In this document: one piece after another, positions 11,743-36,185 of the stretch
Numbering within the stretch: position 1 is the stretch's first letter
Layout of the letters: the number at the start of each line of letters is the position of its first letter
Assembly (NCBI GenBank): GCA_902783515.1
Contig: CACZRK010000170.1
Coordinates: 1-36,527, forward strand
DNA: 36,527 bases
Direction: 5' to 3'
DNA from: an uncultured Coriobacteriaceae bacterium
GTDB lineage: Bacteria; Actinomycetota; Coriobacteriia; Coriobacteriales; UMGS124
Translations under genes and position numbers: made by a program
Notes under the pieces: generated by a model
The model's input: the letters and a program-made list of their open reading frames with translations, nothing else
Databases searched by the model: none
What the model was told of the DNA's origin: nothing

Positions 11743-11834
11743 GTGCGTCGTGTTCCTGCTGGTGGGCAAATGCACGCTATGCCCGAGGTTCGAGGAGGCT
11801 GCGCGGAGCCCCCATGTGGAGAGGATGGTATGAA

Positions 11835-15189: not shown

Positions 15190-15424
15190 TGCAGCCCCGT
15201 TTCGATAGCGTAGGTGCAAGTCGTGGGCGCAGACGCGGATGACGCATGGATGGCGAGATGCTCTGAAGCGTCGGGCGACCACGCGTCATCAGGCGTGCAC
15301 CCAAATGGTCTGGTTGCGCGCGCCGCCGCTCGGGACGACGTGCGGTCGACAACGACCCATAACGGCGTCTCGATTATAGGGTGACGGGATGGCGTCGGGA
15401 ATATTCGAGTGAATGGGGGATGAA

Positions 15425-19021: not shown

Positions 19022-19304
19022 GACCTGCCCCTTTCTACTCGTGGGTGCGCGGGGTACCTATGTGACACCTTGTCGCGGGTGCCGATACGCACTCCAGGCG
19101 TTCTTTGGACACCCGCGCGCGTCTGCCGTCCCCGCCGCACGCCCCGTGCGCGTTGGCCCCATGGTGGCCGCTCGGTTGCCTTCGTCCATCGTGCGCGGCG
19201 GCTATGTATATGCGATTTTGGCGTATCATCCGTGACGGCCGATGCGCGCTTCGCGAGCCCGGCATCGTCGGACGTCTTGAATGGTGGGACGGGAGGTCGC
19301 GCTG

Positions 19305-20855
19305 ATGACGTTGCTGCGGGCGAGGAGAGACGTCAAGATCGCGCGCCTCCCCCTGGCCTGCGCGGTCATGTCGCTCATGTGGGTGTGGCTGAACGTGTCG
19401 AGCCGCGGCGGCTTCTTTGGCGAGAGCTACGCGGAACAGGGGCAGGTGGCGCTCTATGCGTGTCGCCTCCTCTCGCTCGTGCTCGTCGCGGCCCTTTCCC
19501 GCTTCCTCTGGTCACGCCCGCGCACGCTGCTCGCCGTCAGTGGATCGCTGGTATGCGTGGGCGCGCTCGTGCACGCGGTTGCTCTGGCGACGCAGTCAAT
19601 GGCGGGAGACTCGCTCGCCTGGGGGATGGACGTCATCGGCGAGGCGCTCTGCGGTCTCGGCTACCTGCCATGTCTCTTCGCGGTCCTGCTCGGACTTGCA
19701 CGGACATCATGCCGCATGCGGGACGTTTCTGTCGCGGTACTGATCGCGATGGCGTGCAAGGAGCAGGTGCCGCCCCTGCTCTCTCTCCTGCCGGTCGCAA
19801 CGCATGTCTGGGTGCTCCTGTTCCTTCTGGTTGCACTTGTGGCCACCTTGGCGTGCTATGGGCGCGTCATGGGCGCGGGAAGGCAGGCGGCGTCTGCCGA
19901 CGTCCCGGGCGACGGGTGCGCCACGAGGCGCGCCACGCGACAGGTGCTGCTGCTTGGCTGCGTCGCATACCTCACGACCTACGTGTTCGGCATGGCGAGC
20001 GGCATCGGGCTGGCGGGATCGCCGATGTCCACGGCAACCCATGGCGTGATCCTCGTCCCGGCAGGTAAGATCATTGCCCTCGCGGTCCTCGTCTTGCTGT
20101 CCTGCGGCGCGATCGTGCACACGGCTGACATGCCCCGTGTCTGGCGCTTCGTTCCCGCATTCGTTATCCTTGCGCTCTCCACGACGCTCTCACCGCTCAT
20201 CCTCGCCGTCGGCGCGAACCCGATTGCCGCCGACGCCGTCGCTGCCTGCCTCCAGGGTGTGTACGACTTCAGCCAAGTGCTCGTATGGGTGATCGTGGCG
20301 TCAGCCCTCAGGCTCGGTAACCCGATCGAGCTGGCGGTCGTTGCCGGCATGAACGCCTTCTACCATGTGCCCGCCGTGCTTGTTGGTTCACGACTGCCGA
20401 ACCTTTCCGAGGGGCTTGCCTCGAGTCTGATCGTCAGCTACGGTCTGCTCGTGATCATCATTGCCGTGCTGCTGCCGGCGATGGAAGCCCTACGCGCGGG
20501 GAGGGGTCACGGCGAGTGCGGGTCGTCGGGGGGTGACCAGGGCGAGACATCCGGCTCGGATCTGCTCAGGCGAGCTCTTGCGTGCAGGTGCCGCGTGGTT
20601 GCCGATCGTTTCGGCCTCACGAAACGCGAGACTGAGGTCTTCACACTACTGTGTCAGGGACTTTCCCGGGAGGCCGTCTGCGAGGAGCTCGGCGTGTCCA
20701 TCGGCACGGTCAAGGCGCACATCGCCCACATCTACGAGAAGACGGGCATCAACACGAGGGAGGGGCTCAGCGCGCTTGTGTTTGAAGACGGACGCGACGA
20801 CGAGGTCGGAGCCGAGGGTGAAGATCGCCGCTCGCTGCCGCCCATTCGGATCTGA
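19305..20855 (+). CDS. Polytopic-membrane LuxR-family regulator
   Basis: Track ORF 19281-20855. ATG 19305 has GGGAGG 8 nt upstream. The C-terminus reads LTKRETEVFTLLCQGLSREAVCEELGVSIGTVKAHIAHIYEKTGINTREGLS. Confidence 0.85.
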   Translation: MTLLRARRDVKIARLPLACAVMSLMWVWLNVSSRGGFFGESYAEQGQVALYACRLLSLVLVAALSRFLWSRPRTLLAVSGSLVCVGALVHAVALATQSMAGDSLAWGMDVIGEALCGLGYLPCLFAVLLGLARTSCRMRDVSVAVLIAMACKEQVPPLLSLLPVATHVWVLLFLLVALVATLACYGRVMGAGRQAASADVPGDGCATRRATRQVLLLGCVAYLTTYVFGMASGIGLAGSPMSTATHGVILVPAGKIIALAVLVLLSCGAIVHTADMPRVWRFVPAFVILALSTTLSPLILAVGANPIAADAVAACLQGVYDFSQVLVWVIVASALRLGNPIELAVVAGMNAFYHVPAVLVGSRLPNLSEGLASSLIVSYGLLVIIIAVLLPAMEALRAGRGHGECGSSGGDQGETSGSDLLRRALACRCRVVADRFGLTKRETEVFTLLCQGLSREAVCEELGVSIGTVKAHIAHIYEKTGINTREGLSALVFEDGRDDEVGAEGEDRRSLPPIRI

Positions 20856-21090: not shown

Positions 21091-22719
21091 CTATCCGCGG
21101 GCGATGATGTCCTCGGCGCTCATGTAGCCGGAGGTGTATACGAGGCACACGCCGACGCCGACGCCGCAGTACGTGTCGTTGTACAGGTTGGAGCCTGCCT
21201 CGACGCCGATGGCGTATAGCCCCGGGATCCTCGCGCCGTTGGCGTTCAGCACGCCGTAGCCCAGGTCAACGCTTACGCCACCCCAGCTCGTGAGGTTGTT
21301 CTCGTAGGTGTACACGGCGTAGTAGGGGCCGGCGCCGTAGGGGACTAGATACGCGGGGTCCTTGCCGCACAGGGTGTCCTTGCCGGCGGCGCAGCAGGCG
21401 TCATAGTCGGCGAGGGTCTTGGCGAAGATCTCGGGATCCATGCCGGCGGCCTGTGCGAGCTCTTCGGGCGTCTCGCCCTTGAAGCCGGTGCCGTCCTGCG
21501 CCATCTGGTCGAACACGGCGGTCGCGTTCTCCCAAGGCGTCTCAAGGTCGTACTCGGGCGCGTACTTGGGCGGGATGGTCAGCTTGGCGGTGGCGCCGAG
21601 CGCCGCGATGCCGCCCTGTTCGAGCAGGGCGAGCTGGTCGGCCGAGACGATTGTCCAGTGGAAGTCGCCTTGGAACAGCGAGGAGTTCGCAGCCGCGTCC
21701 GCGCTGCCGAGGATGCCCTCGTTGCGGAAGCGACGGCCGTCCTTCGTCACGTTCATGAAGCCGGACATGTAGGTCGTGAGGAACGGGTACTTCGCGGGGA
21801 AGTCATCGAACGTCTCGGTGAGCTTGTCGGTGGCGGTGGTGAACGTCTGATGCGGCATCTGCATACCGTAGTTGAGCGGCTTGGCGCCGCCGGCCTCCCA
21901 GCACATCCTCAGCCCCTCGCCGACGTTCTGGGGCAGGCCCCCGCACACGGGCCTGCGGCCGAAGGCCTCAAAGACCATGTCCTCATTGGCGGCATAGCCT
22001 CCCGTCGCGATGACGACGGCCCTGGCCGCGTTGAACTGCCTTGCGGCGCCAGTCTCATCCAGCGCGATCACGCCCGTGACCCTGCCGTCGTCGTTCTGCA
22101 CGAGTGCCTTTGCGGTCATCGAGAGGCGCACGTCTATGCCTGAGCCGTCCACCATGGCCTGGTAGAGGGCCGGGCGGTCCTTGTAGGGGACGTCGATCTT
22201 CCAGTTCTTGACCCCCATGGAGTTGAAGTCCTTGACGAACGCCCAGCCCCACGACTGCTCGAGCCAGGTGAACGCCGTCGCGGAGTTGTTGAGCAGGCTG
22301 GAGATGGCCGTCGCGTCAACGCGCCAGTGGCAGTCGTTCACCCAGTCACTTACCTGTGCCGCGATGTCGTCGTCGGCCGTGCGGACCATCGCCGAGAAGA
22401 CCGAGTTGGAGCAGCCACCCAGCACCGTTGACTTCTCGAGCAGGGCGACCCGCAGACCGTTCTCCGCGCAGTGCGTCGCGCACGACATGCCGGCCGCGCC
22501 GGCGCCCACCACCACGACGTCAAAGGCCTCGGTCGACTCCGGCGCGTAGGAGCTCGGATCTGCCTCGTCGTTGGCTGCTGCCGCATTTGTGGGCGCGTCG
22601 GCCTTGGCAGACTCCATGGCCCCCGCCGCGGTGGCGCCCCCTGCCGCCGCCACGCTCACTGCGGCCGCGGTCGCCACGAAGTTCCTGCGCGTGACATTTC
22701 CCATCCCGTTGATTGCCAT
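21091..22719 (-). CDS. Tat-signal FAD-dependent reductase
   Basis: GGGAGGA lies 5 nt upstream of the ATG. MAINGMGNVTRRNFVATAAAVSVAAAGGATAAGA is the Tat signal and FDVVVVGAGAAGMSCATHCAENGLRVALLEK is the FAD fold. Confidence 0.9.
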   Translation of the reverse strand: MAINGMGNVTRRNFVATAAAVSVAAAGGATAAGAMESAKADAPTNAAAANDEADPSSYAPESTEAFDVVVVGAGAAGMSCATHCAENGLRVALLEKSTVLGGCSNSVFSAMVRTADDDIAAQVSDWVNDCHWRVDATAISSLLNNSATAFTWLEQSWGWAFVKDFNSMGVKNWKIDVPYKDRPALYQAMVDGSGIDVRLSMTAKALVQNDDGRVTGVIALDETGAARQFNAARAVVIATGGYAANEDMVFEAFGRRPVCGGLPQNVGEGLRMCWEAGGAKPLNYGMQMPHQTFTTATDKLTETFDDFPAKYPFLTTYMSGFMNVTKDGRRFRNEGILGSADAAANSSLFQGDFHWTIVSADQLALLEQGGIAALGATAKLTIPPKYAPEYDLETPWENATAVFDQMAQDGTGFKGETPEELAQAAGMDPEIFAKTLADYDACCAAGKDTLCGKDPAYLVPYGAGPYYAVYTYENNLTSWGGVSVDLGYGVLNANGARIPGLYAIGVEAGSNLYNDTYCGVGVGVCLVYTSGYMSAEDIIARG

Positions 22720-22932: not shown

Positions 22933-24483
22933 TCAGAGTCTCTCCAGGAGCTCGAGAAGCTCCTGGCGCGAGTGGACTTCGAGCTTGCGGTAGAGGTTGC
23001 GCAGGTGCGTGCGCACGGTGTTCTCAGTGACGCAGAGGCTCTCGGCGATGCCGCGCTGCGTGTACCCGCGTGCGAGCAGGCGCAGGACGTCGCCCTCGCG
23101 GTCCGTGAGCGCGAACCGAGCGATGGCGGCGTCGCAGCTTGCGCCGTACAGATCGTCGAGAAGCGCGGCGCCCGAAGCGGTGCGGCGACGGTCGGGTCCC
23201 CGCACAGCGTCGCAGTCGGCCCCCGCTCGCGCGTCGCGCGCGCGACGCTGCACGGCGACGTAAGCCATGGCCAGCACGTACACGATCGCAAGCGCGCAGA
23301 CGAGGACGTTCGCCTGGCTCGCCGCCCCGCCGCGATAGATGAGGTAGGCGATGAGCGTGGAGAGCGACACGGAGAGGAACGTCCCGGCGCCGAGGATCCC
23401 GAGGGCCACGCCCCGGCTGACGCCGTGGTCCTCGGCGCAGGTCGCACTGAGCACGATCAGCGTCGCGAGGATGACGAAGAACGCCGCGTGAAGCACTGCC
23501 GCGGCGATCACGATCAGCGAGGGACTGACTAGTGGCAGCAGCGCAGCGATGGTCACGATCACGGGGAAAGCCACGCGGTACATCCCGATCGCGTCAAGCC
23601 GACGCCCTGTCGTGCGCTGTCGACGTCCCGAGAGCCACCAGGCAAGTGCGACCATCGCGAACGCCACGCCGAGCACGGCGCCGAGCCGATTGATGAAGTC
23701 GGTGTCGCGAATGCTCGCGAGTGCCGTGGTCCGCACGAAGGAGAAGGCAAACACCGAGGCCATGACGCAGATGAGCTCGGTGGACAGGCGCGACAGGGCA
23801 TCGCCGAGCGTCGCGGGTTGGTCGCCGTCGCCATGCGCGCCAGGACCGTCGCCCACGCTCGCCTCGCCACCGGTGCCGTCGGCCGTCGCGCGGGTGCCCG
23901 CCACAGCCCCGTCGACCCGCATGCCATGGGTCATGGAGGCGTACAGGCATCCCGAGACCGCGACGCACGCGGCGAGGAACAGGATGCGGCCGTCGATGGC
24001 AAGTGCGTAGGCGATGGCGTACAGCAGGGCGTACGCGACCAGCGTACCCACGACGAGCCGTGTCGCGCCTGCCTGGTCCTGGCCGGCCTCGAGCAGGGCG
24101 AGGCCCCAGAGCCAGAGCGCGACGCCGCACGCCGCGCCGAGCGCGAGGAGGACGGCCGTGGCGATCGCCGCGCCCAAGCTGGTGGCGTACGCGTCGCTGC
24201 CAGGCAGACGGCTCAGCGCGAGCGTCGTCACGACGATGACGAGCGAGCCCATTGCCTGCGCGCCGACGCGGGCCCGCGTGCTCGCGCCGTGCCGTCCCTC
24301 GGCCCACGCGCACAGCAGCAGAGCGGCTCCGGACGACAGGGCCTGGGGGGCCGTCTTCACGAGAAGCAGGCCGGGCAGCCGTAGGCCCAGTAGCGCCCCC
24401 CAGGGAAGGCCGCCCCAGTTGGTCAGGCTGATGGCGAGCAGGGAGACGGCCGTGCCGAACGCGATGCACATGCGATTGCGCAC
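22933..24483 (-). CDS. Polytopic-membrane LuxR-family regulator
   Basis: Track ORF 22933-24540 (GTG start). The start is uncertain: GTG at comp. 24481-24483 has GGAGG 4 nt upstream, and ATG 24471 is also possible. The C-terminus reads LTDREGDVLRLLARGYTQRGIAESLCVTENTVRTHLRNLYRKLEVHSRQELL. Confidence 0.85.
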   Translation of the reverse strand: MRNRMCIAFGTAVSLLAISLTNWGGLPWGALLGLRLPGLLLVKTAPQALSSGAALLLCAWAEGRHGASTRARVGAQAMGSLVIVVTTLALSRLPGSDAYATSLGAAIATAVLLALGAACGVALWLWGLALLEAGQDQAGATRLVVGTLVAYALLYAIAYALAIDGRILFLAACVAVSGCLYASMTHGMRVDGAVAGTRATADGTGGEASVGDGPGAHGDGDQPATLGDALSRLSTELICVMASVFAFSFVRTTALASIRDTDFINRLGAVLGVAFAMVALAWWLSGRRQRTTGRRLDAIGMYRVAFPVIVTIAALLPLVSPSLIVIAAAVLHAAFFVILATLIVLSATCAEDHGVSRGVALGILGAGTFLSVSLSTLIAYLIYRGGAASQANVLVCALAIVYVLAMAYVAVQRRARDARAGADCDAVRGPDRRRTASGAALLDDLYGASCDAAIARFALTDREGDVLRLLARGYTQRGIAESLCVTENTVRTHLRNLYRKLEVHSRQELLELLERL

Positions 24484-24676
24484 AAGACCTCCGCCCCCCG
24501 TCGCCGCGTGCGCTTCCAGGCGCTTACCGCACGGTACCACATTCCTTCACGTCGGCATTTCGCATTGATTGTGCGAGTGCGCGGCGTCGGCCTCCGGCGT
24601 ATGGTCAGGGCGATGCGCCTCGCAGGACAGGGGGTCTGCGACGGGGCGTGTGGCCACGATGACAAGGGGGATACGC

Positions 24677-26503
24677 ATGAGCACAGAAATGACGGGTATG
24701 GGGGAGTCGATCGACCGTCGGGACTTCATCGGTCGCGCGGCCGCCGTGGGTGCCGCAGCGGCCGCGGCGGGCGTGGCGGGGGGCGCTGCGGGCGTCGCCC
24801 AGGCCGCGCAGCAGAAGACGTCGGCGCAGGCGGACGCATCGACAGAGGATGCGCCGGCGCCCCGGGATATCATGCCGGGCGACCTGAGCGCGCTGCCGAC
24901 GCCGCCGGCCATCACAGCCGATCAGATCAAGGTGACCAAGGACTGCGACGTGCTTGTCATCGGCGCGGGCATCTCCGGCCTTGCCGCCGCGCGCTCCGCG
25001 GTCGAGGCCGGCGCCAAGGTCATTGTCATGGAGAAGAACGCCCAGATCGAGATCCACGGTTTCGGTTGCGGTGTCGTGAACAGCTCGCTGGCGACTGACC
25101 ACGGTATTGTGGTCGACCCCGTCGCCGTGATGAACGAGTACGAGCGCCGCAGCTATGGCCGCGTGAATATGCAGCTCGTGAGCCTGTGGGCGAACCACTC
25201 CGGTGAGGTCTTTGACTGGTACAGCTCGGTTGCCGACGACTTCGTCAAAGAGAATATGACGCTCAACTTCTACCCGCCGTTCGAGGAGCACGACACGACC
25301 AAGGACCAGTTCCAAACGTTCCTTGGCTGCATCGACTTCAAGGAGGACCCGCTCAAGCAGTTCGATGTGGCCCCTTGGACGAAGCTTGGCCAGCTGAACC
25401 AGGCGAAGGCCGAGGAGGAGGGCGTCGAGTTCGTTTTCTCGACGGCTGCCCAGGAGCTCACGACCGATGCCACTGGACGGGTGACCGGTGCGATCGGCAT
25501 GGACGAGAATGGGGACTACCTGCAGGTCAACGCGAGCAAGGGCGTCGTCCTCACGACAGGCGGCTTCTGCCAGTTTGGCGCGGGCGCCGAGGTCATGTGC
25601 AAGGTGTTCACGCCCAACATGTACAAGAACTACCGGCTCATCAAGGGCGAGGAACCGAGCTGGCAGGAGATGTTCACGGTGAACCCCGGCCCCATCCAGG
25701 GGGCCACGGGCGATGGGCAGCTCATGGCCATCTGGGTCGGCGGCCAGATGGACCCGTTCGCGGACGCCGGCATGGGGTCGTGCGAGTCCGCGATTGGTGG
25801 CACGGTGGCTCTCACCGTGAACAAGAACGGCGAGCGGTTCCACAACGAGGACATCGGCATCTGGGAGAAGCACGACCAGGTCATGCGTCAGCCCGGGCAG
25901 ATTTGTTACGACATCATCGACGCGAACTGGCGCGACCGCCTGCCGTACCAGGCAACCGGCCACCGCAACTTTGATTATCACGAGCACCAGGTCGCGAAGG
26001 GCTTTGACGGCATCACATACGTGAACACGTTCAATGACGAGTTCCTGTCCGCGGTCGGCAACCCCGAGGGCATCACGCCGTCGCTCGACCGTCATGCCGG
26101 AACCGTCTACGCAGCGGACACGCTGGAGGAGCTCGCCGAGATTATCGGCGTTCCCACGGACGCGTTTCTGGCGACGGTTGCCCGCTACAACGAGTTGGCC
26201 GCCCAGGGGCATGATGAGGACTTCGGCTGCGACCCGCAGAAGCTCTTCCCGATTGATACCCCGCCGTTCATCGCGTGCAGCGCCACCGCCTCGCCGAACT
26301 TCGCGGCGTACGCAGGCCTTGTCACGAACGGCAGGCTGGAGGTCGTGAACAAGGACGGCCAGCCCATCGGGGGCTTGTGGGCAGCCGGCAATTGCTGCGG
26401 CGGAAAGTTCGGACCGAGCTACTTTACGCCGATCCCCGGCATGAACCACGGCAACGGGATCACGCACGGCTATTACGCTGGCCTCTACGCTGCGCAGGCG
26501 TAG
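24677..26503 (+). CDS. Tat-signal FAD-dependent reductase
   Basis: Track ORF 24569-26503 (TTG start). I moved the start to ATG 24677 (GGGGGA 6 nt upstream). MSTEMTGMGESIDRRDFIGRAAAVGAAAAAAGVAGGAAGVAQA is the Tat signal and CDVLVIGAGISGLAAARSAVEAGAKVIVMEK is the FAD fold. Confidence 0.9.
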   Translation: MSTEMTGMGESIDRRDFIGRAAAVGAAAAAAGVAGGAAGVAQAAQQKTSAQADASTEDAPAPRDIMPGDLSALPTPPAITADQIKVTKDCDVLVIGAGISGLAAARSAVEAGAKVIVMEKNAQIEIHGFGCGVVNSSLATDHGIVVDPVAVMNEYERRSYGRVNMQLVSLWANHSGEVFDWYSSVADDFVKENMTLNFYPPFEEHDTTKDQFQTFLGCIDFKEDPLKQFDVAPWTKLGQLNQAKAEEEGVEFVFSTAAQELTTDATGRVTGAIGMDENGDYLQVNASKGVVLTTGGFCQFGAGAEVMCKVFTPNMYKNYRLIKGEEPSWQEMFTVNPGPIQGATGDGQLMAIWVGGQMDPFADAGMGSCESAIGGTVALTVNKNGERFHNEDIGIWEKHDQVMRQPGQICYDIIDANWRDRLPYQATGHRNFDYHEHQVAKGFDGITYVNTFNDEFLSAVGNPEGITPSLDRHAGTVYAADTLEELAEIIGVPTDAFLATVARYNELAAQGHDEDFGCDPQKLFPIDTPPFIACSATASPNFAAYAGLVTNGRLEVVNKDGQPIGGLWAAGNCCGGKFGPSYFTPIPGMNHGNGITHGYYAGLYAAQA

Positions 26504-26600: not shown

Positions 26601-28064
26601 CTACCCCCGCGGGAACCACGCTCGCCGCAGCGCGGCGACGCCGGGCGCGACGTCCTTGACGGCGATCGACGAGAACCCCAGCAGCAGCCTGCCGCGCGGG
26701 GCGGCGCGGGTGAACCAGTACGGTTCGGCGGCGTAGACCCGCGCGCCCTGCGCCAACGCGGACGCCAGCAGCTCTGGGTAGCCCATGCCGTTGCAGACGG
26801 TCGCGAACAGGTGCATCCCCGCATTGGCGCCTCGCAGCTCGAGCTGGGTCCCGTCAAACTCCCGCAGGAGGGCGTCGAGCAGCGCGTCGTGGCCGTGCCG
26901 TAGCCTCGTGCCCAGCCTGCGCACGTGTCGCTCGTACTCGCCGCCGTCTATCAGGCGGGCAAGCAGCTCCTGCTCGATGACCGACACCTCCGTCATGGCC
27001 AGTGAGAACGCGTCATAGTAGCGGCTCATGAGGTCGGGCGGGATCACGAGATAGGCGACGCGCAATGCCGGCGAGAGGGTCTTTGAGAAGTTGCCGAGAT
27101 AGATGACGCGCCGCCCGCCATCAAGCGACTGGAGCGAAGGGACCGGATCGACGTCGTAGCGGTACTCGCTGCACGAGTCATCCTCCAGGACCCACGCGTT
27201 GTCTTCGTGTGCCCATGCGAGCAGCCCCGCACGCACGTCAGCGCGCATCACCTCGCCAGTCGGGAACTGATGCGAGGGCGTGGCGAAGAGCAGACTGGCC
27301 CCCGATGATCGCACGCCGTCAAGGAAGGCTTGGGCGCCCTGGTCGCTGGGGACGCCGACGACGCGGAAGCCCATGCCACGGCTTACGTCAGGGAACACCC
27401 GATAGCCTGGTTCCTCGCCCGCGACGACGCCATCTCTTGGGGCAAAGAGGCGCAACACGCGCGCTATTGCCGCGGCCGTTCCGGGCATGATCACCACCTG
27501 CGTCGGATCGCAGGTGATCCCACGAGCGCGCCTCAGGTAGGCGCACAGGGATCGCTGCAGGTGGCTGGGCCGCGACTCGTCAAGGTAGCGAGCGGCCAGG
27601 CCCGGCTCGTCTCGCATGACGTCCCGCGCGGCTGACAGCCAGACGTCGGAGGGGAACGATCCCTCGGGGAGCTGCGCGAAAGCAAAATCGTACGTGACGC
27701 GAGCGTCGGAGCCGAACTGCGAGAAAAACGCGCCTCGCCCCGCGGGCTCCTTCGGTGGCGCCGTCGGCGCGCTCGTTGCCGTCGTCTGCAGGAACCTTGC
27801 GTCCAGGGGGCGCACGACGAATCCCGATTGCGGCACGTTCTCAACGTAGCCCTCCACCTCAAGCTGCAAGTACGCTCGCTCGACCGTCGGCCGTGAGACG
27901 CCCGCGTCCTGCGCGAGCTGCCGCAGTGAGGGGAGCCTATCTCCGCCGACGAGCGCGCCGGACGAGACGAAAGCGCAGATCTCACGGTATATCTGCTGGT
28001 AGACGGGTACGTCGCTTGCCCTGTCAACGTGTACGTCGAGCCTTCTGCCGCCCACGTTCCTCAT
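26601..28064 (-). CDS. MocR-type regulator (GntR winged HTH fused to a PLP-dependent aminotransferase-like domain)
   Basis: The N-terminus VYQQIYREICAFVSSGALVGGDRLPSLRQLAQDAGVSRPTVERAYLQLEVEGYV is a GntR-type HTH. The ~380-aa C-terminal domain contains YLGNFSKTLSPALRVAYLV, the PLP-lysine context of class-I aminotransferases. Confidence 0.9.
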   Translation of the reverse strand: MRNVGGRRLDVHVDRASDVPVYQQIYREICAFVSSGALVGGDRLPSLRQLAQDAGVSRPTVERAYLQLEVEGYVENVPQSGFVVRPLDARFLQTTATSAPTAPPKEPAGRGAFFSQFGSDARVTYDFAFAQLPEGSFPSDVWLSAARDVMRDEPGLAARYLDESRPSHLQRSLCAYLRRARGITCDPTQVVIMPGTAAAIARVLRLFAPRDGVVAGEEPGYRVFPDVSRGMGFRVVGVPSDQGAQAFLDGVRSSGASLLFATPSHQFPTGEVMRADVRAGLLAWAHEDNAWVLEDDSCSEYRYDVDPVPSLQSLDGGRRVIYLGNFSKTLSPALRVAYLVIPPDLMSRYYDAFSLAMTEVSVIEQELLARLIDGGEYERHVRRLGTRLRHGHDALLDALLREFDGTQLELRGANAGMHLFATVCNGMGYPELLASALAQGARVYAAEPYWFTRAAPRGRLLLGFSSIAVKDVAPGVAALRRAWFPRG

Positions 28065-28119: not shown

Positions 28120-28258
28120 GACCATATACCTCATACGATGGACTGGCAACGATCGTCGGCCACATCGGCGCGCAGACGGCGCGCGGAGCGGCGGGCGGTC
28201 GGGATGGAAGGGGGAGATCGTGGGGAAGAGGGGTACGGACGTGGGCTCTCCGGGGCCC

Positions 28259-29722
28259 ATGAGGGCGAGGCGTCTGGCCGTGGCCGCGACGGTGGCGGCC
28301 ATGGTCGCCGTTGTCGCGTGCCTCGGCGCGCCGAGGGGTGCCGCCGTCGCCGATCGCGTGGCGTCCGCAGCTGAGGGAGACGGCGAGACGGCCCACGCGG
28401 TCGCGATGAGCTCCCTGGACGCGGGGGGCTCCTCCGCCGACGTCGACGCCGCGGCCGACGGGCAGGGCACGACCGACGCGGGCGACGACGACCTCGCGGC
28501 GGCCCGCGAGGCGTATGCCAAGGCGACGCCGCAGGCGAGCGGCACGTGCTACGAGTGTCACGCGAACGAGGACCTGCTGCGAGCGTCGCTGTCCGACAAG
28601 GACGATGACGCCTCCAAATACCTTGTCGACGAGAGCTTCGTCACAAGCACGCACGGCATGCTCGGGTGCACGTACTGTCACGGGGGACATTCGGACGAGA
28701 CTGACGCACGGGCGGCGATGGCAGGCATGAATGCGACGCCGACCGCCGACGGCGGCCAGGCGGTGTGCGGTCGGTGCCACCAAGGGGTGGTCGACACCTT
28801 CAAGACGAGCCTGCACTTCAACACGACCGGCATCAAAAACGCCTGGGACGCACGACTGGCGCCCTCAGAAGAGGCGCTGGGCACTGACCTGTCAGCGCAG
28901 TACTACCATCACGACGGGTATGACGGCGCCTGCATCGATTGCCACGCGACATGTGGCGAATGCCACGTGCGCAGCGCCAAGGACGCCATCGACCCCGACG
29001 CCGGGCTCACGAGGGGGCACGACTTCGTCGATCTGACCGACAACGCCGACATCACGTACACGTGTCTCTCATGCCATGCCGGGTCGATCGCGGGCTGCTT
29101 CACCGACTATGACGTGCACGGGCCCTCCGGGGCGAACATGAACTGCATGGACTGCCACAACATAGGGGAGATTCATGGCGACGGCACGAGCTATCAGACG
29201 ATGTCGCATTCCGGGGCCATCACGACCGAATGTACCGACTGCCATGACGCCTCCTCGCTTTCGGGAGAATGGCATTCCGACACGCACCTTGCCAAAAACG
29301 AGTGCTGGGCGTGCCACACGAGCACCTACCGCACATGCACCTCGTGCCATGGATGGGCTGCCGAAACGCGAGGGGACGTGCCGATCGAGATGAGCGAGCA
29401 GTGCTTCCTTGGCTATGACGCGGCTGATGGCAAGATCACGACGCTCGCAAAGGCGCCGGTGGACGAGGGGATGCTTGGCGACGTCTCTGACCTCGCGTTG
29501 GATGACGACCTTCTCAACGCTGGTAGCACCTGGTATCCCGCGTTCACGCACGGTGTGATCGTTCCGCAGCCAGACCAAGACTTTTGCGATCGCTGCCACG
29601 GTGCGGGAACCGCGTTGCTTGACGAGGATGACCTCCAGTATCCGGATTGGGAGAAAGGCCAGGTTGTGGGGAGTCTGCCTGAGGTATGCGCGAGTGACTA
29701 TGGCGGGCAGGCCGCGTCCTGA
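28259..29722 (+). CDS. Undecahaem c-type cytochrome with an N-terminal signal/anchor (lipobox-like VVAC)
   Basis: Track ORF 27755-29722. I moved the start to ATG 28259; an in-frame GTG at 28220 is an alternative. There are eleven CxxCH motifs: CYECH, CTYCH, CGRCH, CIDCH, CGECH, CLSCH, CMDCH, CTDCH, CWACH, CTSCH and CDRCH. The N-terminus reads MRARRLAVAATVAAMVAVVACLGAP. Confidence 0.9.
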   Translation: MRARRLAVAATVAAMVAVVACLGAPRGAAVADRVASAAEGDGETAHAVAMSSLDAGGSSADVDAAADGQGTTDAGDDDLAAAREAYAKATPQASGTCYECHANEDLLRASLSDKDDDASKYLVDESFVTSTHGMLGCTYCHGGHSDETDARAAMAGMNATPTADGGQAVCGRCHQGVVDTFKTSLHFNTTGIKNAWDARLAPSEEALGTDLSAQYYHHDGYDGACIDCHATCGECHVRSAKDAIDPDAGLTRGHDFVDLTDNADITYTCLSCHAGSIAGCFTDYDVHGPSGANMNCMDCHNIGEIHGDGTSYQTMSHSGAITTECTDCHDASSLSGEWHSDTHLAKNECWACHTSTYRTCTSCHGWAAETRGDVPIEMSEQCFLGYDAADGKITTLAKAPVDEGMLGDVSDLALDDDLLNAGSTWYPAFTHGVIVPQPDQDFCDRCHGAGTALLDEDDLQYPDWEKGQVVGSLPEVCASDYGGQAAS

Positions 29723-30028: not shown

Positions 30029-30047
30029 GATACCATGCTATGGTATC
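30029..30047. promoter_or_regulatory. Palindromic candidate operator of the toxin-antitoxin operon
   Basis: GATACCAT-GCT-ATGGTATC has 8-bp perfect arms. It ends 29 nt upstream of the antitoxin ATG and is followed by TATCAT (30048-30053). Confidence 0.55.
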
Positions 30048-30075
30048 TATCATACAACCGAAAGGAGGGTTGCCC

Positions 30076-30471
30076 ATGCCTGCTGCCTCAATGGCGGGTG
30101 GTGCGCCGAAGAGCGTGCAGATGAACGTCCGGCTTGATCGCGAGGACAAGCGGCGCGGTGACGCGGCGCTTGCGGCCATGGGCTTCACGCCGACCCAGGC
30201 GGTGAAGTCGCTGTGGGCGCTTGCGGCCGGTGACGCGAAGGATCTTGACTTCGTGAGCGAGCTGCTGCGTCGCGGCCGAGACCGGCAGCTCGCGACGGCG
30301 AGCGACGGGACGACGGGCGAGGCCGACGACGTGCTCGCCCGTGGGTGGGCGCTGTACGAGGATGCCTGCAAGGAGGTCGGCGTCAGCGGGGGCGCGGATC
30401 ACGGGCGCGCCGACGACGAGCTTCTCGAGCAGGCGCTGCTCGACAGGTACGGCGAGGGGCGTGCGTCATGA
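30076..30471 (+). CDS. RelB/DinJ-family (ribbon-helix-helix) antitoxin
   Basis: Track ORF 30040-30471. ATG 30076 has AGGAGGG 5 nt upstream. VQMNVRLDREDKRRGDAALAAMGFTPTQAVKSLWALAA fits the DinJ/RelB N-terminal pattern. The stop overlaps the next start (ATGA at 30468-30471). Confidence 0.7.
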   Translation: MPAASMAGGAPKSVQMNVRLDREDKRRGDAALAAMGFTPTQAVKSLWALAAGDAKDLDFVSELLRRGRDRQLATASDGTTGEADDVLARGWALYEDACKEVGVSGGADHGRADDELLEQALLDRYGEGRAS

Positions 30472-30962
30472 GCGGGAATCAGGAGTGCATCGTCATCGAC
30501 ACGAACGTCTGGCTTGACAACTACATCCCGCATCGCGCGGGGCATGCGGACGCGCAGCGGCTTCTCGCGTGCGCGCGTTCCTGCGACGTCCAGCTCCTGT
30601 ACGCCGTGGAGAGCGTCAAGGACGTCTTCTACGTGATCGCCGCCGACTTCAAGGCGACGGTGAGGGCACAGGCCGGTCACGTCGGGGACGCCGAGGAGGC
30701 GGTCGCCCAGCAGCTCGCATGGTCGTGCGTCGAGAACATGCGGACGCTTGCCAACGCGATCGGCGCGGACGAGTCAGACGTCTGGCTTGCCGCGAAGTAC
30801 CGCTCGCTGCACGGCGACCTTGAGGACAACCTGGTGCTTGCGGCGACGAAGCGCGCCGGCGCGGACTACCTCGTCACGGGTGACCGCGCCTTCATCGAGA
30901 AGGCCACCGTGCCCGCGCTGACGCCGCGTGACTGGCTGGTGCTGCACGAGGCCGAGCGCTAG
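30468..30962 (+). CDS. PIN-domain (VapC-like) toxin
   Basis: Track ORF 30345-30962. I moved the start to ATG 30468, which overlaps the antitoxin stop by 4 nt. The sequence has IVIDTNVWLD, YAVESVKDV, LEDNLVLAAT and DYLVTGD, which give the four acidic PIN positions in the expected order. Confidence 0.8.
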   Translation: MSGNQECIVIDTNVWLDNYIPHRAGHADAQRLLACARSCDVQLLYAVESVKDVFYVIAADFKATVRAQAGHVGDAEEAVAQQLAWSCVENMRTLANAIGADESDVWLAAKYRSLHGDLEDNLVLAATKRAGADYLVTGDRAFIEKATVPALTPRDWLVLHEAER

Positions 30963-31366: not shown

Positions 31367-31615
31367 CTATGGCTCGACGCCATGGGCGCCAGAGGTCCCG
31401 GCGCTGTCGTCAGACCTCCCATCACCTTTGGCCAGCGCGGCTTGACTCTCCTGATAGCGCCGGCTGTATAACTTCCACGGGTTAGAGGGGACCGTGATGC
31501 CGCTCGCCGTGAGACATGCGAGCGTTAGGCTGTGCACGCTCGCGGCATAGTTGATGACGTCCGAGTCTACTTGCTCGCTGGTAACGATCGCCAGGTGCGA
31601 CACTTTGAAGGGCAT
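31367..31615 (-). CDS. Hypothetical 82-aa ORF with no recognisable motif
   Basis: Called from the ORF track only. It abuts the junction with the reductase fragment. Its coding status is uncertain. Confidence 0.25.
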   Translation of the reverse strand: MPFKVSHLAIVTSEQVDSDVINYAASVHSLTLACLTASGITVPSNPWKLYSRRYQESQAALAKGDGRSDDSAGTSGAHGVEP

Positions 31616-31623
31616 TCGACTGA

Positions 31624-31977
31624 CACGGGTGGAAACTGTCCGGCCAGCTTGACGCCTACAACGCTGCGTGCGACGCAGGCGAGGATGCGGACTTCGGCAA
31701 GGATGCGAAGTATCTCGTCAAGATGGACAAGGCGCCGTACTACGCCGTGCTCGCATACTCGTTCATCAGCGCGATCTCGGGCGGGATCAAGACGGATGCG
31801 GATTTCGCGGTCACCCGCGCGGATGGCTCGGAGACCCCCGGTCTCTATGCGGTGGGCATTGCGAGCAGCCGCGAGTTCTGGGGGGACTACTATCCCGGCG
31901 CCCTCGCGATCACGCTCTGCACGCACGGTGGGTTCGTTGCCGGGCGGAACGCGGCGGCGTATGCGCTGGGGAAGTAG
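31624..31977 (+). pseudogene. C-terminal ~117-codon remnant of a flavoprotein reductase
   Basis: The frame opens right after TGA (31621-31623) and reads HGWKLSGQLDAYNAACDAGEDADFGKDAKYLVKMDKAPYYAVLAYSFISAISGGIKTDADFAVTRADGSETPGLYAVGIASSREFWGDYYPGALAITLCTHGGFVAGRNAAAYALGK. This matches the C-terminal motifs of the intact paralogs (YNxxCxxGxDxDFGK, PYYA, PGLYA.G). No Tat signal or FAD fold lies upstream. Confidence 0.8.
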
Positions 31978-32115
31978 GCGAGTCTCTGTTTCTGATCCTG
32001 CATGTAGCATACGGTAGCTGATGGTTGCGCGCGGTTGCCCACGACGGGCTGCCGCGCGCAATCGTGTGTGATGTGCGCCGGGTGTGGCTATGCTCCCGCC
32101 GAGCGGAGCGCGGTG

Positions 32116-33705
32116 CTAGCCTTCGTCTCGCCGTTCCCGGTCGATAAGCTCGATGAGCTCCTGCCTGCTGTGCACGCCGAGTTTGACGTAGACGTTCTTG
32201 CAGTGGAACCGCACGGTGTTGGGCGAGACGCCCATGTACTCCGCAGCTGCGGGGATGCTCCGCCCGCTCATGAGCATGCTCACGACCTCGCGCTCACGTT
32301 CCGTAAGACCATGCGCCTGCGCGATTGGTCCAAGGGAGCTCTGTCGGGCCGTGTTGCGCGACTCGGTGTCATCAGGAGACGCCAGCTCGGATTCCCACGA
32401 GTAGACTCGTCTCGTGTCCTGCGCAGTCTGGAAGCGGTCGGAGAACACGTATGCGGCGAACATGACTAGCACGCTCGCGAGTGAGCTTGGGAGCGTGGCG
32501 AAGGCGGTCCCCTCAAGGTCCACGCCGCTGTTGGCCAGCGCATTGAAGGGAATTGCCGGCAGATAGCGCATAGAGTAGATGATCCCGAACGACAGCGCGT
32601 ACATGGCGACGGGCGAGATCAGATAGTGCCGCGAGACTTGGTTACACGCGAGGATCCCCATCATTGACGCGACGGAGAAGATCGTGTAGAGGGCAAACGA
32701 GAGCGCATAGCCATAGCCGACGCCGAGAAAGGGGAGCAGCGCGCAGGCCAGCCCAATGCCGGGTGCGGCGACCCTGTAGAAAATGCCCATGTCCAGGTGG
32801 TAGCGATTGCGCTCGAACAGCGCCCAGGTGATTCCCGAGCTTGCGACCAAGGCAAGGCTGTTGAGGTTGCCGACCAGCTCCTCCGAGGCCGGGGTCGCCA
32901 TCGAGAGGCCGAGCCGCACGATCTGCATCACGAACCCTATTGCCCCGATGGTGAGGCAGGGCGCGAGCAGGGCGAGGATGCCCTTGCGCAGATTCCCTCG
33001 GTGCTCTGGGCTGTCGCTTGGGAAACGGACAGTCCCGCCATAGAACGTGACCACGCGCGTCGTGGAGGGGCTTGACGGCTGCCGGGCGTCGTCGCCGGTT
33101 GCCGCCGGGATGAGACGAAACGCGCAAAGCGCGAGAAGCGCGCTTGTGCCAGGGGCAATGACCAGTGCGGCTATTGTCATCACTACCCAGGATGACAGCC
33201 ATGCGAGGAGGAAGTACAGCGCCCCTCCGACGGCGGTGCCGCCGATAATACAACGAGCGTCCATCGGCGTGTTCTGCGAGCAGAGCACGAAGACCCAGAG
33301 GATGAAATTGCCCGCAATGCCGCCACCAACAAGCGTTCCGCCGATGGTGGTATAGAGAAGGCTCGCCCATGATGGCGCCGCAAAGGCCTTTGGGAGACAA
33401 GTTGCCACCGCAAATCCCACGATGAAGGAAAGTGAGGGCGCCCAGTATATCGGGGGGCGCCGGAGGACGGCGTGCATGCGGGGCGATCCCGTTGACGTGA
33501 GCAGAAATACCAAGAGAAAGCAGAGACAGAAGACGAGGTTCTTCGCGATGGTGAACGGCGCCGCGATTTCGCTCGACACGAATGAGGGAGAGGCGCCAGG
33601 CCAGCCAGCGATGGAGACGAGGGCGATGTCCATCCCATAGCCCGCGATCGCCCACGGCAGAAGACGTGTATTGCCTGCTGCCTGGTCCGTCGTCTCGTGA
33701 GGCAT
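32116..33705 (-). CDS. Polytopic-membrane LuxR-family regulator
   Basis: Track ORF 32116-33789. I prefer ATG at comp. 33703-33705 (AAGGGA 9 nt upstream); ATG 33714 is an alternative. The C-terminus reads LTEREREVVSMLMSGRSIPAAAEYMGVSPNTVRFHCKNVYVKLGVHSRQELI. Confidence 0.85.
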   Translation of the reverse strand: MPHETTDQAAGNTRLLPWAIAGYGMDIALVSIAGWPGASPSFVSSEIAAPFTIAKNLVFCLCFLLVFLLTSTGSPRMHAVLRRPPIYWAPSLSFIVGFAVATCLPKAFAAPSWASLLYTTIGGTLVGGGIAGNFILWVFVLCSQNTPMDARCIIGGTAVGGALYFLLAWLSSWVVMTIAALVIAPGTSALLALCAFRLIPAATGDDARQPSSPSTTRVVTFYGGTVRFPSDSPEHRGNLRKGILALLAPCLTIGAIGFVMQIVRLGLSMATPASEELVGNLNSLALVASSGITWALFERNRYHLDMGIFYRVAAPGIGLACALLPFLGVGYGYALSFALYTIFSVASMMGILACNQVSRHYLISPVAMYALSFGIIYSMRYLPAIPFNALANSGVDLEGTAFATLPSSLASVLVMFAAYVFSDRFQTAQDTRRVYSWESELASPDDTESRNTARQSSLGPIAQAHGLTEREREVVSMLMSGRSIPAAAEYMGVSPNTVRFHCKNVYVKLGVHSRQELIELIDRERRDEG

Positions 33706-34034
33706 TAATGTCATTCCCTTCGCCGTGTGCTCTGAAGAGTGTAGTCGAGCGTATCCACTCATGCATCGTACGCTCGTGGCGAGGAGCAAGTTTTGGTATC
33801 GAAGGACCGACTCGAATCTAGGCGGCAGGGCAACGACAATGGCCAGTGGTGACGTCCAATGCCGCAGCGTGAAGGCGGCCGAAGCCTGGCGGGCGGGGGT
33901 TTATATCTACGCGATGTTCCGGCGGACACGAGCGCGCATAGAGCTCTCGAAAAGGGCGACGCAGAAAGGGGTGTCGGCTCTTCGTCCTTGTCATTGGCGC
34001 CCAAGGGCCGCGCGGAACGTCGTCGCAAACAATC

Positions 34035-34082: not shown

Positions 34083-36185
34083 CTATGCCTTCACTGCCTG
34101 TTCGAGAGCACGTTTGACCGCCATCTTGATGGCGTTTGACGTGACAGTTGCGCCCGCAACGCCGTCAAGCTTGTAACTCTGCGCTTCCTCGACCTGCTTC
34201 GCGTAGGTGCCGTCCTCGATCGCCTCGTAGCCGCCGATGCCCTTCGTCTCGTTGTTCGGTGAGATGTCGGACACCGCGATGTGGCCGTCCTTGACTTGGA
34301 TCGTGACGTCGATCTCGCCAACGATGCCGTAACCGTAGCCGGTGTACGTCCCATCGGCAAATGCGGCGCCGTCAAGATCCTCGTCGCTCTGCTTTGCCTT
34401 TGCGCTGTCGTCCTGATGACGCTGGATGCCCAGCGACGCGGGCGGCACGTAGTCGGGGTCGGCTGCGATGCCTGACCAGCCACCGGCGAGGTACTTGCCC
34501 GTGAGGTAGCCGAAGGTGATGCAGTTCATGCCGAGGTTGTGCCCCTCAACCAGGAAGTTGTAGCTGTTCGCGAACGCGTCGCCCACCATGGTGCCGATGT
34601 TGAACAGTCCCTCAATGGGGGTGTCGTCATCCTCGCACACCTGCATGTTGATGTTGGTGCGCAGGCCACCGAGGATCGTAAGGAACTTCGGAGCGTCCTT
34701 GCGATAGCCGTAGAATGGTGCGGTACGCACGGGAACGAGCAGCTCGGGACGCTTGTGGAAGTCCTCGTCAACGCCGGCATCGCACAGCTCGTTGTAGCGC
34801 TCGATGGAAGCGATCATGGCGTCGGCGTCGACGCCCATCTGGGAGGCGAGGTCCTCCAGCGTGTCCGCCTTGAACATGCTGCCCGCCTCGACCTTTGCAT
34901 CCCAGGACGCGAGCACCTCGTCCGCCGTCATGTCGCCCTCGCCGTAGACGTTCTTCCAGTTGTGCCACGGCATGTGATGCGAGGGATACTCGGCATCGAA
35001 CACGGCATTGATGGGGCCTTCGTGCTTGATCACGTACGGCAGGTGGCCGACGCCCATGTCCTCGCAGCAGAACCGCTTGCCTGCATCGTTGACCATGATG
35101 GTGTCGGGCGCGTTCCACGGCTGCGAGCATGGCGCGGCGAACGTGGCTGCCATCGCGGCGTTGGGGATCGTGCGCTGCCACGCCGCACCGACCCACAGGC
35201 CCATCTGCTGGCCCCGGCCCTTGTACAGTCCGCCGTAGACCTTGCCGAGCGTGTCGGGCGTCTGCGCCTCGTCCCAGTTGGTGACCCAATCGACGGCCTC
35301 GGGGGCGTAGCGCTCCATCATCTCGCGATTGCCCGAGAAGTCGCCTGTCGCAAGCACGATGCCCGTGGTTCCGACGAACTTGACGTAGTTTCCGTCGGCG
35401 TCGCTGCCGATCACTGCGTCCACGCGTCCGGTCGTTCCATTGGGGACGCCGCCGCGCACCAGCTGCTCAGCATGCGTGTTGAAGTAGAATGTGACGCCTT
35501 GCTCCTCGCAGAGCTTGCGCAGCGCGAAGACGAGAGACGGCTGACCGTCGGCGACGACGGGGAAGTCGTCGTTGTTCCAGCAGTGCGACTCCTCCGGGCC
35601 GAAGAGAGGATAGGTGCGCATGTCATCGGGCCAGACGTTGCTCTGCTCGATGGTGATGCGGATCCCCTCAACCTGGGAGGTGCGGTCAATGAGCCAGTTG
35701 ATGGACTCTTCGGAGTTGTTGTACCACTTGTGCCACTTTGCGACGTCGATGTTGAACGACGCCTGCGCCATCTGAGCCAGTAGGAATCGTTCGTCGATGC
35801 GCGGCAGGCCGTACTCATTCATGATCGTGGAGTACACGACGGCGTTAGATCCGCCGCGGGCGACGACGTTGGGACTTTGGGCGAACACCACGACCTTGAG
35901 CCCACGCTCCGCCGCCGAGAGCGCGCAGCACAGACCGGCGGTGCCGGCACCGACGATGACAACGTCGGCGGTGATCGTCTCGGTGATGTCGGCGTCGGCG
36001 ATCGGGTCCGGCGGCGTCATGAACGACGGGGTGGCATCGTGTGCCGCGGAATCCTTCGCTGCGGATGGCGACTCCGCTGCGAGTGCCGTGCTCGTGCCTG
36101 CCGAGACGATCGTCGCGCCGGCGGCCGTCATCGCGGCGCCCGTGATGAATGACCGGCGGTCCATCTGTGCTCCTGCGTGAGTCAT
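34083..36185 (-). CDS. Tat-signal FAD-dependent reductase with a C-terminal FMN_bind-like domain (700 aa)
   Basis: AGGAGG lies 5 nt upstream of the ATG. MTHAGAQMDRRSFITGAAMTAAGATIVSAGTSTALA is the Tat signal and ADVVIVGAGTAGLCCALSAAERGLKVVVF is the FAD fold. The tail GIVGEIDVTIQVKDGHIAVSDISPNNETKGIGG...LDGVAGATVTSNAIKMAV looks like an FMN_bind module. Confidence 0.9.
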   Translation of the reverse strand: MTHAGAQMDRRSFITGAAMTAAGATIVSAGTSTALAAESPSAAKDSAAHDATPSFMTPPDPIADADITETITADVVIVGAGTAGLCCALSAAERGLKVVVFAQSPNVVARGGSNAVVYSTIMNEYGLPRIDERFLLAQMAQASFNIDVAKWHKWYNNSEESINWLIDRTSQVEGIRITIEQSNVWPDDMRTYPLFGPEESHCWNNDDFPVVADGQPSLVFALRKLCEEQGVTFYFNTHAEQLVRGGVPNGTTGRVDAVIGSDADGNYVKFVGTTGIVLATGDFSGNREMMERYAPEAVDWVTNWDEAQTPDTLGKVYGGLYKGRGQQMGLWVGAAWQRTIPNAAMAATFAAPCSQPWNAPDTIMVNDAGKRFCCEDMGVGHLPYVIKHEGPINAVFDAEYPSHHMPWHNWKNVYGEGDMTADEVLASWDAKVEAGSMFKADTLEDLASQMGVDADAMIASIERYNELCDAGVDEDFHKRPELLVPVRTAPFYGYRKDAPKFLTILGGLRTNINMQVCEDDDTPIEGLFNIGTMVGDAFANSYNFLVEGHNLGMNCITFGYLTGKYLAGGWSGIAADPDYVPPASLGIQRHQDDSAKAKQSDEDLDGAAFADGTYTGYGYGIVGEIDVTIQVKDGHIAVSDISPNNETKGIGGYEAIEDGTYAKQVEEAQSYKLDGVAGATVTSNAIKMAVKRALEQAVKA

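Follow-up and report, generated by a model that had tools for sequence, protein, structure and literature searches.

The window analysed here, a contig of 36,527 nucleotides (CACZRK010000170.1, assembly GCA_902783515.1) from an uncultured Coriobacteriaceae bacterium, carries on its forward strand the gene of a predicted multihaem c-type cytochrome, surrounded by genes of putative secreted flavin reductases. The open reading frame (ORF) 28259–29722 translates into 487 amino acids (aa) followed by a stop codon. Exactly eleven CxxCH motifs, the number given in the initial annotation of this DNA, were counted by regular expression at aa 97, 137, 170, 225, 232, 269, 296, 325, 349, 360 and 443 (numbering of the 487-aa form). 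These motifs of 15 nucleotides each span positions 28547–29599, with first bases at 28547, 28667, 28766, 28931, 28952, 29063, 29144, 29231, 29303, 29336 and 29585. The protein contains 24 His and 26 Cys, and a motif scan of it revealed neither CxxCK nor CxxxCH. The six frames of the whole 36.5-kb window held four other CxxCH, corresponding to a chance expectation of about 0.03 per 487 codons, and a chance origin of the eleven motifs is therefore excluded. All eleven were invariant or nearly so across 24 homologues sharing 43–99% identity. In a set of 55 distant relatives, motifs 2–11 were kept in at least 96% of the sequences and motif 1 in 51%. A ligand co-varying with haem 1 was sought among these distant sequences and gave no signal; the apparent absence of haem 1 tracked N-terminally truncated records. 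The NCBI annotation of the protein and of its whole family is “hypothetical protein”.

Public gene calls on the same sequence disagree about the length of the product (534, 500 and 480 aa). The 534-aa call starts at ATG 28118 and the 487-aa form at ATG 28259. The cytochrome most likely has 500 aa and starts at GTG 28220, the gene then covering 28220–29722 on the forward strand. This form is favoured because a Shine–Dalgarno-like GGGGGAG run lies just upstream of the GTG, because ATG stands in its place in the related, 98.4%-identical locus L053, and because 10–20 residues precede the hydrophobic segment in the homologues. The comparison with the 98.4%-identical strain gave 15 synonymous and 9 non-synonymous codon differences. 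The gene was 100% identical in three further metagenome samples, and its guanine plus cytosine (GC) content was like that of its flanks. The retention of the CxxCH motifs across homologues and the 15:9 ratio indicate a real gene under purifying selection.

The N-terminus of the 487-aa form is MRARRLAVAATVAAMVAVVAC. A positive n-region, MRARR, precedes the sole hydrophobic segment of the protein, which ends in the lipobox-like V-V-A-C pointed out in the initial annotation (28259–28321, forward strand; Cys codon 28319–28321). The PROSITE PS51257-type pattern ([LVI][ASTVI][GAS]C after a hydrophobic core, with the Cys at 15–35 and a K or R within the first seven residues) fits both the 487-aa and the 500-aa readings, in which the Cys is Cys21 and Cys34, respectively, and does not fit the 534-aa gene call. 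A lipobox-like Cys was present in 8 of 29 full-length homologues, the rest having a Cys-free hydrophobic segment. The N-terminus is predicted to be a Sec-type signal, either lipid-modified or kept as an uncleaved signal anchor. Lipidation is plausible in this protein, and tethering rather than lipidation appears to be the conserved trait. Export by the twin-arginine translocation (Tat) route was considered and rejected, as the RR pair is not conserved and the protein is devoid of the [ST]RRxF[ILVM] motif of the neighbouring reductases. Maturation of cytochromes c follows Sec export.

The segment between the anchor and the haem domain (aa 22–75, positions 28322–28483, forward strand) is an acidic, low-complexity linker rich in Ala, Gly, Ser and Asp, and predicted to be disordered. 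Its 54 residues consist for 83% of A, D, E, G, S, T, Q or P and have a net charge of −9. In a first AlphaFold run, made with 25 close homologues, the predicted local distance difference test (pLDDT) was below 50 over residues 1–75. The linkers of the homologues vary from 14 to 86 aa and are all acidic, and a single N-terminal hydrophobic segment followed by an acidic linker was seen in essentially all full-length homologues. The linker would serve as a flexible tether joining the anchor to the haem domain. The earlier proposal of a lipid-anchored haem wire holds as to the anchor, which is conserved together with the linker; the lipid is not a feature of the family. We consider it highly probable that the protein is exported, tethered and loaded with haem.

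The haem domain proper (aa 76–487, positions 28484–29719, forward strand) is compact, with 37 aa per haem. An AlphaFold2 model was obtained from an alignment of 78 sequences and reached, over these residues, a pLDDT of 90.5 and a predicted template modelling score (pTM) of 0.85. The earlier run on 25 close homologues had given a pLDDT of 60.6, and its Foldseek search produced noise only. A Foldseek search of the 78-sequence model against the PDB returned nothing significant, the best match being MccA (4rkm) with an E-value of 4.4 and a TM of 0.13. The fold is not thereby shown to be new, since haem proteins are loop-rich and since HMMER finds an Otr-like collinearity. A stretch rich in beta strands (aa 357–427, positions 29327–29539, forward strand; DSSP strands at residues 282–352 of the trimmed model) contains a single haem motif, that of haem 10, at its start (C360–H364), and extends between this motif and haem 11. 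It carries Met405, precedes His431, is kept family-wide and aligns with the C-terminal part of Otr.

The profile search of PDB sequences with HMMER gave local matches only. The best was the dodecahaem GSU1996 (3ov0, E-value 2e-14), followed by MccA (4rkm, 1e-12), Otr (1sp3, 6e-12), MtrA (6r2q_A, 1e-11), OcwA (6i5b, 1.2e-10), the octahaem nitrite reductases (1e-8), NrfB (2e-8), NrfA (2e-7) and cytochrome c554 (9e-4), with a weak match to the haem domain of Fcc3 (about 1e-3). Most of these proteins, together with the undecahaem OmhA, are included in a modular group described in terms of “grafting and pruning”. At the domain level, Pfam Cytochrome_C7 scored 36.2 bits (cut-off 24.8) and Cytochrom_c3_2 scored 25.2 (cut-off 25). 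Searches with models of multihaem families, which had been recommended as a check, thus placed Cytochrom_c3_2 above its cut-off and NrfB below its own, and gave no match for MtrA/DmsE.

The distribution of potential axial ligands was compared between the subfamilies. In the 55 distant relatives, ten His outside the motifs were conserved (132, 154, 186, 254, 287, 306, 340, 343, 398 and 431), as many as the ten conserved haems of these sequences, and the core of the family has ten haems, probably all bis-His. In the gut subfamily nine conserved His were found (132, 186, 254, 287, 306, 317, 339, 343 and 431). Position 154 is occupied by Met in place of His (codon 28718–28720, forward strand), and His398 is lost, while Met405 (29471–29473, forward strand) is 96% conserved. 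The nine His and two Met make eleven candidates for eleven haems, M294 and M315 being spare. All eleven haems are thus probably six-coordinate, nine of them His/His and two His/Met, as far as ligand counts can tell. In addition, Glu280 is replaced by Cys (29096–29098, forward strand) in 21 of 23 gut-subfamily sequences. The two His/Met haems may raise local potentials, and the three substitutions together (Met154, Met405 and Cys280) may shift the haem potentials or give rise to a His/Cys haem.

An electron-transfer wire is favoured over an enzyme because the conserved His and Met are sufficient in number, because conserved Lys, CxxCK and CX15CH are all lacking, and because each haem occupies 37 aa. 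This density is near that of MtrA (333-aa chain) and NrfB (163 aa), and higher than in Otr (443 aa), TvNiR (525 aa) and MccA (732 aa); the haem numbers of all these chains are well established. We consider it fairly probable that the cytochrome is a wire. It would otherwise be a self-contained enzyme of the Otr/MccA/NrfA lineage, in which one haem reduces tetrathionate, thiosulfate or polysulfide, sulfite, nitrite or selenite and the other haems form an internal wire. The profile matches to MccA, Otr, the octahaem nitrite reductases and NrfA agree with such an enzyme, as does the collinearity of the eight haems of Otr with haems 3–9 and 11, but the non-catalytic GSU1996 and MtrA were matched equally well. 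Arg199 is conserved in the loop that bears Lys56 in Otr, yet this Lys position itself is not conserved in the family, and across the 78-sequence alignment no Lys is conserved, the highest Lys column reaching 47%. An independent CX15CH was likewise absent from the cytochrome, and 37 aa per haem leaves little room for a substrate pocket. Secreted tandem-rhodanese proteins follow, or are fused to, distant relatives at 35 of 52 loci, which suggests sulfur or selenium chemistry, and there are weak matches to ExtM and ExtN of a Geobacter selenite/tellurite operon; no rhodanese, however, adjoins the cytochrome in the gut subfamily. The unexplained Cys280, peculiar to this subfamily, could also speak for an enzyme. 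On balance a self-contained enzyme is improbable, and the protein is not a recognisable NrfA, HAO, Otr or MccA enzyme; homology of the NrfA/HAO type was what the initial annotation had named as fatal to its proposal.

In an exhaustive profile search, 1,036 representative clusters passed E ≤ 1e-3, of which 86 also passed E ≤ 1e-30. A word-indexed search recovered about 30 clusters of 45–99% identity, which came almost exclusively from gut metagenomes, together with a tail of sequences near 30% identity. Neither Pfam nor NCBIfam has a full-length model for the family; the best NCBIfam matches were ExtM (24 bits, cut-off 800) and NrfB (24 bits, cut-off 166.6). The 11-haem subfamily was present in only 7 of 185,579 GTDB species representatives. 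These are three Coriobacteriia-type records (48–59% identity), two Geobacteraceae (40–41%), one Thermoleophilia (43%) and one Firmicutes (35%), the best match (59%) being labelled Acutalibacteraceae. A further 45 loci, from Chloroflexota, Desulfobulbaceae and others, contained mostly 10-haem relatives of 25–35% identity. Literature searches turned up nothing specific on this family or on multihaem cytochromes in Eggerthellaceae. The family is uncharacterised, and its gut branch is distinguished by its ligand changes and by a novel genomic setting.

The patchy distribution could indicate a horizontally acquired passenger, which would not be matured or not be used in its host, for instance for want of a maturation system or of a donor. 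A toxin–antitoxin pair adjoins the gene, there are no maturation genes in the window, and haem loading of Cgr1, a cytochrome of Eggerthella lenta, failed in heterologous hosts. Such a fate is very improbable, however, for a gene whose haem motifs and ligands are conserved over some 30 gut-derived clusters, and the excess of synonymous changes, the identical copies in three other samples and the flank-like GC content all speak against it. The toxin–antitoxin pair consists of RelB/DinJ-like antitoxin and PIN-domain toxin ORFs (30040–30962, forward strand) directly 3′ of the cytochrome, and the same pair was seen after the gene in two other metagenome contigs of this species (L065 and L066).

The cytochrome gene is monocistronic. 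Upstream and divergent from it lies a gene for a MocR/PdxR-like GntR regulator (26601–28064, reverse strand), with a helix-turn-helix and a pyridoxal phosphate-aminotransferase-like domain, recognised by Pfam GntR and by the NCBIfam model PLP_TF_PdxR (375 bits, cut-off 320). The pairing of such a regulator with the cytochrome recurs in four other metagenome contigs, and the MocR/PdxR-like protein may control the cytochrome gene locally. The equivalog name PdxR, which refers to pyridoxine biosynthesis, is probably misleading here, the regulator being divergent from the cytochrome gene and not from pdxST.

Eight FAD_binding_2 reductases are encoded in the window, all with a [ST]RRxF[ILVM] twin-arginine motif, and only two of them have an FMN_bind domain. 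This bears out the earlier statement that most of the neighbouring Tat reductases have no electron-input module of their own. The nearest one (24569–26503, forward strand), without FMN_bind, is a candidate electron acceptor. On the other side, the gene at 34083–36185 (reverse strand) encodes a Tat flavin reductase with a C-terminal FMN_bind domain. The six others, identified by Pfam and Tat motifs, form an array of mixed orientation between 5279 and 22719. Four of them are on the forward strand (5279–6883; 9793–11742, with FMN_bind; 11712–13538; 15413–17092) and two on the reverse strand (17291–19021 and 21091–22719). LuxR regulators are interleaved with the array at 7923–9629 (reverse), 13612–15282 (reverse) and 19281–20855 (forward), and further LuxR genes lie at 1265–3199 (forward), 22933–24540 (reverse) and 32116–33789 (reverse). 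All six LuxR/GerE regulators have 9–11 hydrophobic segments before their C-terminal helix-turn-helix, corresponding to polytopic membrane sensors. The layout of the window is the architecture described for Eggerthella lenta, with secreted flavin reductases and transmembrane LuxR-type regulators; in that species, transmembrane regulators are reported beside 64 reductase genes. This architecture and the relatives of the cytochrome are the basis for assigning the window to the Coriobacteriia/Eggerthellaceae. No other multihaem gene and no rhodanese gene was found in the window.

Several details of the array concern gene boundaries and origin. In the longest ORFs at 11712–13538 and 24569–26503 (both forward), the twin-arginine motif comes only after 40–50 codons, and the former ORF also overlaps with the gene before it. 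Translation probably begins inside these ORFs, close to MSNGSRVSRRSFI in the first and close to the SIDRRDFI motif, which contains RRDFI, in the second. The 173-aa ORF at 7261–7782 (reverse strand) resembles FAD-dependent reductases in their C-terminal third only (286–443 of a vinyl phenol reductase model) and looks like the remnant of a truncated flavin reductase, downstream of the LuxR gene 7923–9629. The GC content is 0.52–0.58 at positions 3001–9000 compared to 0.61–0.72 over most of the remaining contig. This low-GC segment, which covers a MerR regulator (4225–5124), the reductase 5279–6883 and part of a LuxR gene, may have a different origin. Two ORFs, at 357–1418 (353 aa) and 31532–32017 (161 aa), both on the forward strand, had no Pfam or NCBIfam match and may be spurious, as can happen in GC-rich DNA, or novel genes.

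The neighbourhoods of the homologues were then compared. A flavin reductase was found within about 6 kb of the cytochrome in the window and in all seven other Coriobacteriia-type loci, with varying neighbours and orientations. The chance expectation is about 0.2 reductase per locus, taking at most about 100 reductases in an assumed few-Mb genome, or one per 35–50 kb, a figure that would over-state the significance since reductase genes cluster. One of these loci (L061) also encodes a 206-aa cytochrome (7246–7866, reverse strand) that contains six CxxCH and the lipobox LVAC. Its gene has the same orientation as that of a FAD_binding_2 reductase and lies some 0.8 kb away from the 11-haem orthologue. 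The N-terminal part of this hexahaem protein is homologous to the haem 1–3 module of the 11-haem family (hhalign probability 96%, E-value 1.7e-9). When the ORFs around 52 loci were clustered all against all, no gene emerged as a conserved partner of the 11-haem subfamily; rhodanese and NrfCD partners were confined to distant relatives.

Outside the Coriobacteriia the surroundings were of another kind. At 35 of the 52 loci, distant and mostly 10-haem relatives directly precede one or two secreted tandem-rhodanese proteins (L009–L050; for example L019:11192–12145 and L016:7289–9181). One protein, P0036, is a fusion of the cytochrome and a rhodanese. The cytochrome–rhodanese module recurs, has apparently not been described, and is absent from the gut 11-haem subfamily. 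In a Chloroflexota relative, an NrfD, a Tat 4Fe-4S subunit and a 7-CxxCH cytochrome are encoded separately beside the homologue, and a four-rhodanese protein follows it; the NrfD/4Fe-4S/7-CxxCH set is the quinol-oxidising donor module of this relative. In the Firmicutes locus L007, the cytochrome gene is followed on its own strand, after some 0.7 kb and one small ORF of opposite strand, by the gene of a 754-aa protein that contains 9 CxxCH and MtrC-like domains. In the two Geobacteraceae, a gene for a Phenol_MetA_deg (PF13557) outer-membrane beta-barrel comes after the 11-haem orthologue on the same strand (L004:2878–3798 and L006:2799–3719), and cytochrome and barrel may constitute a small pair in diderms.

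We propose the following model for the protein of the window. An undecahaem cytochrome would be exported by Sec and held by a lipid or a helix on the outer face of the cytoplasmic membrane, with some 55 residues of acidic, flexible linker between the anchor and the haem domain, which would work as a six-coordinate electron-transfer wire. The wire would be reduced by a separate quinol-oxidising module of the membrane, encoded outside the window. Direct oxidation of quinol, as by NapC or NrfH, is unlikely because the disordered linker parts the anchor from haem 1. Onward transfer would take place in the cell-wall space, most likely to the surrounding Tat flavin reductases, which mostly have no input domain. 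That a FAD_binding_2 reductase can be fed by a cytochrome c encoded apart from it has precedents in the model for Cgr1 and Cgr2 and in the reported cytochrome c-dependent methacrylate reductase. A role in feeding the neighbouring reductases is suggested by the gene neighbourhood, which is the sole evidence as to acceptors, and we put forward these reductases as the main acceptors only tentatively.

A number of observations weigh against this model. The cytochrome shares no operon and no regulator with any reductase: its own regulator is of the MocR type and those of the reductases are of the LuxR type, while in other lineages a TetR or OmpR type is found by the homologues. Neither quinol dehydrogenase nor cytochrome c maturation genes were found in the window. 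These genomes are very densely packed with reductase genes, so that proximity may reflect shared genomic islands, and the relatives outside the Coriobacteriia adjoin rhodaneses, other multihaem cytochromes or NrfCD modules, not flavoproteins. The cytochrome occurs in only 3 Coriobacteriia-type GTDB species, and the reductase arrays are family-wide. From this distribution, most such flavin reductases work without this cytochrome, which therefore cannot be their general electron input. As to the wire itself, the assignment of ligands consists of conservation counts without haem-bearing coordinates, and the collinear local similarity detected by HMMER is to an enzyme, Otr.

In another reading the cytochrome would be a terminal extracellular reductase of a monoderm, comparable to OcwA or OmhA, delivering electrons directly to extracellular or wall-zone acceptors such as Fe(III), humics or quinones, flavins or soluble oxidants, without any part played by the flavin reductases. 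Gram-positive bacteria do have surface cytochromes, such as OcwA and the undecahaem OmhA, and a tether of this length and flexibility could bring the haem domain into the wall. The cytochrome has its own regulator and the distribution of an accessory gene, its Geobacteraceae and Chloroflexota relatives stand in respiratory multihaem contexts, and the MtrC-like protein with 9 CxxCH is found near the Firmicutes homologue. The match to OcwA is local, however, without a global fold match; proteins of the OcwA type have open haems and about 58 aa per haem, and the ligand counts suggest that none is open in the window cytochrome. The window showed neither a cell-wall sorting signal nor an S-layer domain nor a partner cytochrome, and the consistent flavin-reductase neighbourhood would be left unexplained. 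We therefore regard an extracellular terminal reductase as possible but doubtful.

For the tethered wire, a history can be suggested in which the gut branch arose from the 10-haem, rhodanese-coupled family by losing the rhodanese, exchanging two His ligands for Met and gaining a Cys. It would now be a shared, tethered hub, one wire for many orphan Tat flavin reductases or for extracellular acceptors. This scenario is speculative, and we hold it to be rather unlikely in its entirety.

Gut Eggerthellaceae have tens to about a hundred secreted respiratory reductases acting on dietary and host metabolites and on drugs. The study describing these arsenals gave no route for electrons to the flavin reductases, and Cgr1, the sole proposed input protein, has never been obtained haem-loaded. 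The cytochrome bears on this open question: a tethered multihaem cytochrome within reductase islands is a concrete and testable candidate for the electron route in the lineages bearing it. Alternatively, it could be evidence of cytochrome-based extracellular electron transfer in some gut actinobacteria. The family is also widespread in sediments and groundwater (Chloroflexota, Desulfobulbaceae and Geobacteraceae), with neither a curated model nor a solved structure, and the characterisation of any member would annotate more than 1,000 protein clusters.

Among the known systems, Cgr1 of Eggerthella lenta had been named as a precedent in the initial annotation. It is a small, NapC/NirT-like protein, co-transcribed with its reductase and proposed to feed Cgr2. 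The likeness is one of function: both are N-terminally anchored, extracytoplasmic multihaem cytochromes of gut Coriobacteriia, proposed as donors to a Tat FAD_binding_2 reductase. They are not of the same family. The window protein, compared with Cgr1 by description and not by sequence, has 11 haems, a 54-aa linker before the first haem, a monocistronic gene and its own regulator. NapC/NirT was absent among the three Pfam families found at E ≤ 0.01 for the window cytochrome. Proteins of the NapC/NirT/NrfH type have four to five haems and a transmembrane helix immediately before haem 1.

OcwA (Thermincola potens) and the undecahaem OmhA (Carboxydothermus ferrireducens) are Gram-positive surface cytochromes with catalytic-type haems. 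The window protein shares with them its predicted place on a monoderm surface, with OmhA the number of 11 haems, and with OcwA a local profile similarity. However, OcwA uses about 526 aa for 9 haems, compared to 412 aa for 11 haems in the window cytochrome, and the similarity is restricted to three local, non-collinear stretches, with no Foldseek match. The resemblance to Otr is more extensive in HMMER alignments, in which the collinearity includes the C-terminal element made up of a His and the last haem. It differs in the two additional N-terminal haems (1 and 2) and the inserted haem 10 of the window cytochrome. The Lys56 ligand of Otr is not conserved, the CX15CH is missing, and the Foldseek comparison with Otr and MccA was not significant.

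MtrA/DmsE, NrfB and GSU1996 have in common with the window cytochrome a similar haem density, local profile matches and, probably, an entirely low-spin ligation. For NrfB, the scores stayed below the cut-offs (PF22678, 26.1 bits versus 27; TIGR03146, 24 versus 166.6). For MtrA/DmsE, TIGR03508 (decahem_SO) had no match in the window protein and reached 31–41 bits in distant relatives versus a cut-off of 192. The match to GSU1996 is a single profile region of about 75 residues aligned four times along that protein. ExtM and ExtN are more remote (NF040943 and NF040967, 24 versus 800 and 14.9 versus 200, respectively), and their rhodanese partner ExtH has no counterpart in the window. Finally, haem c feeds a FAD_binding_2 domain in Fcc3, where the haems are fused to it, and in the methacrylate reductase of Geobacter sulfurreducens AM-1, where they are reported to form a separate cytochrome. 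The window cytochrome is separate, much larger, tethered and without evident pairing to a particular reductase. Although a member of none of these families, it most resembles in function the haem wires MtrA and NrfB and, by its genomic context, the role proposed for Cgr1.

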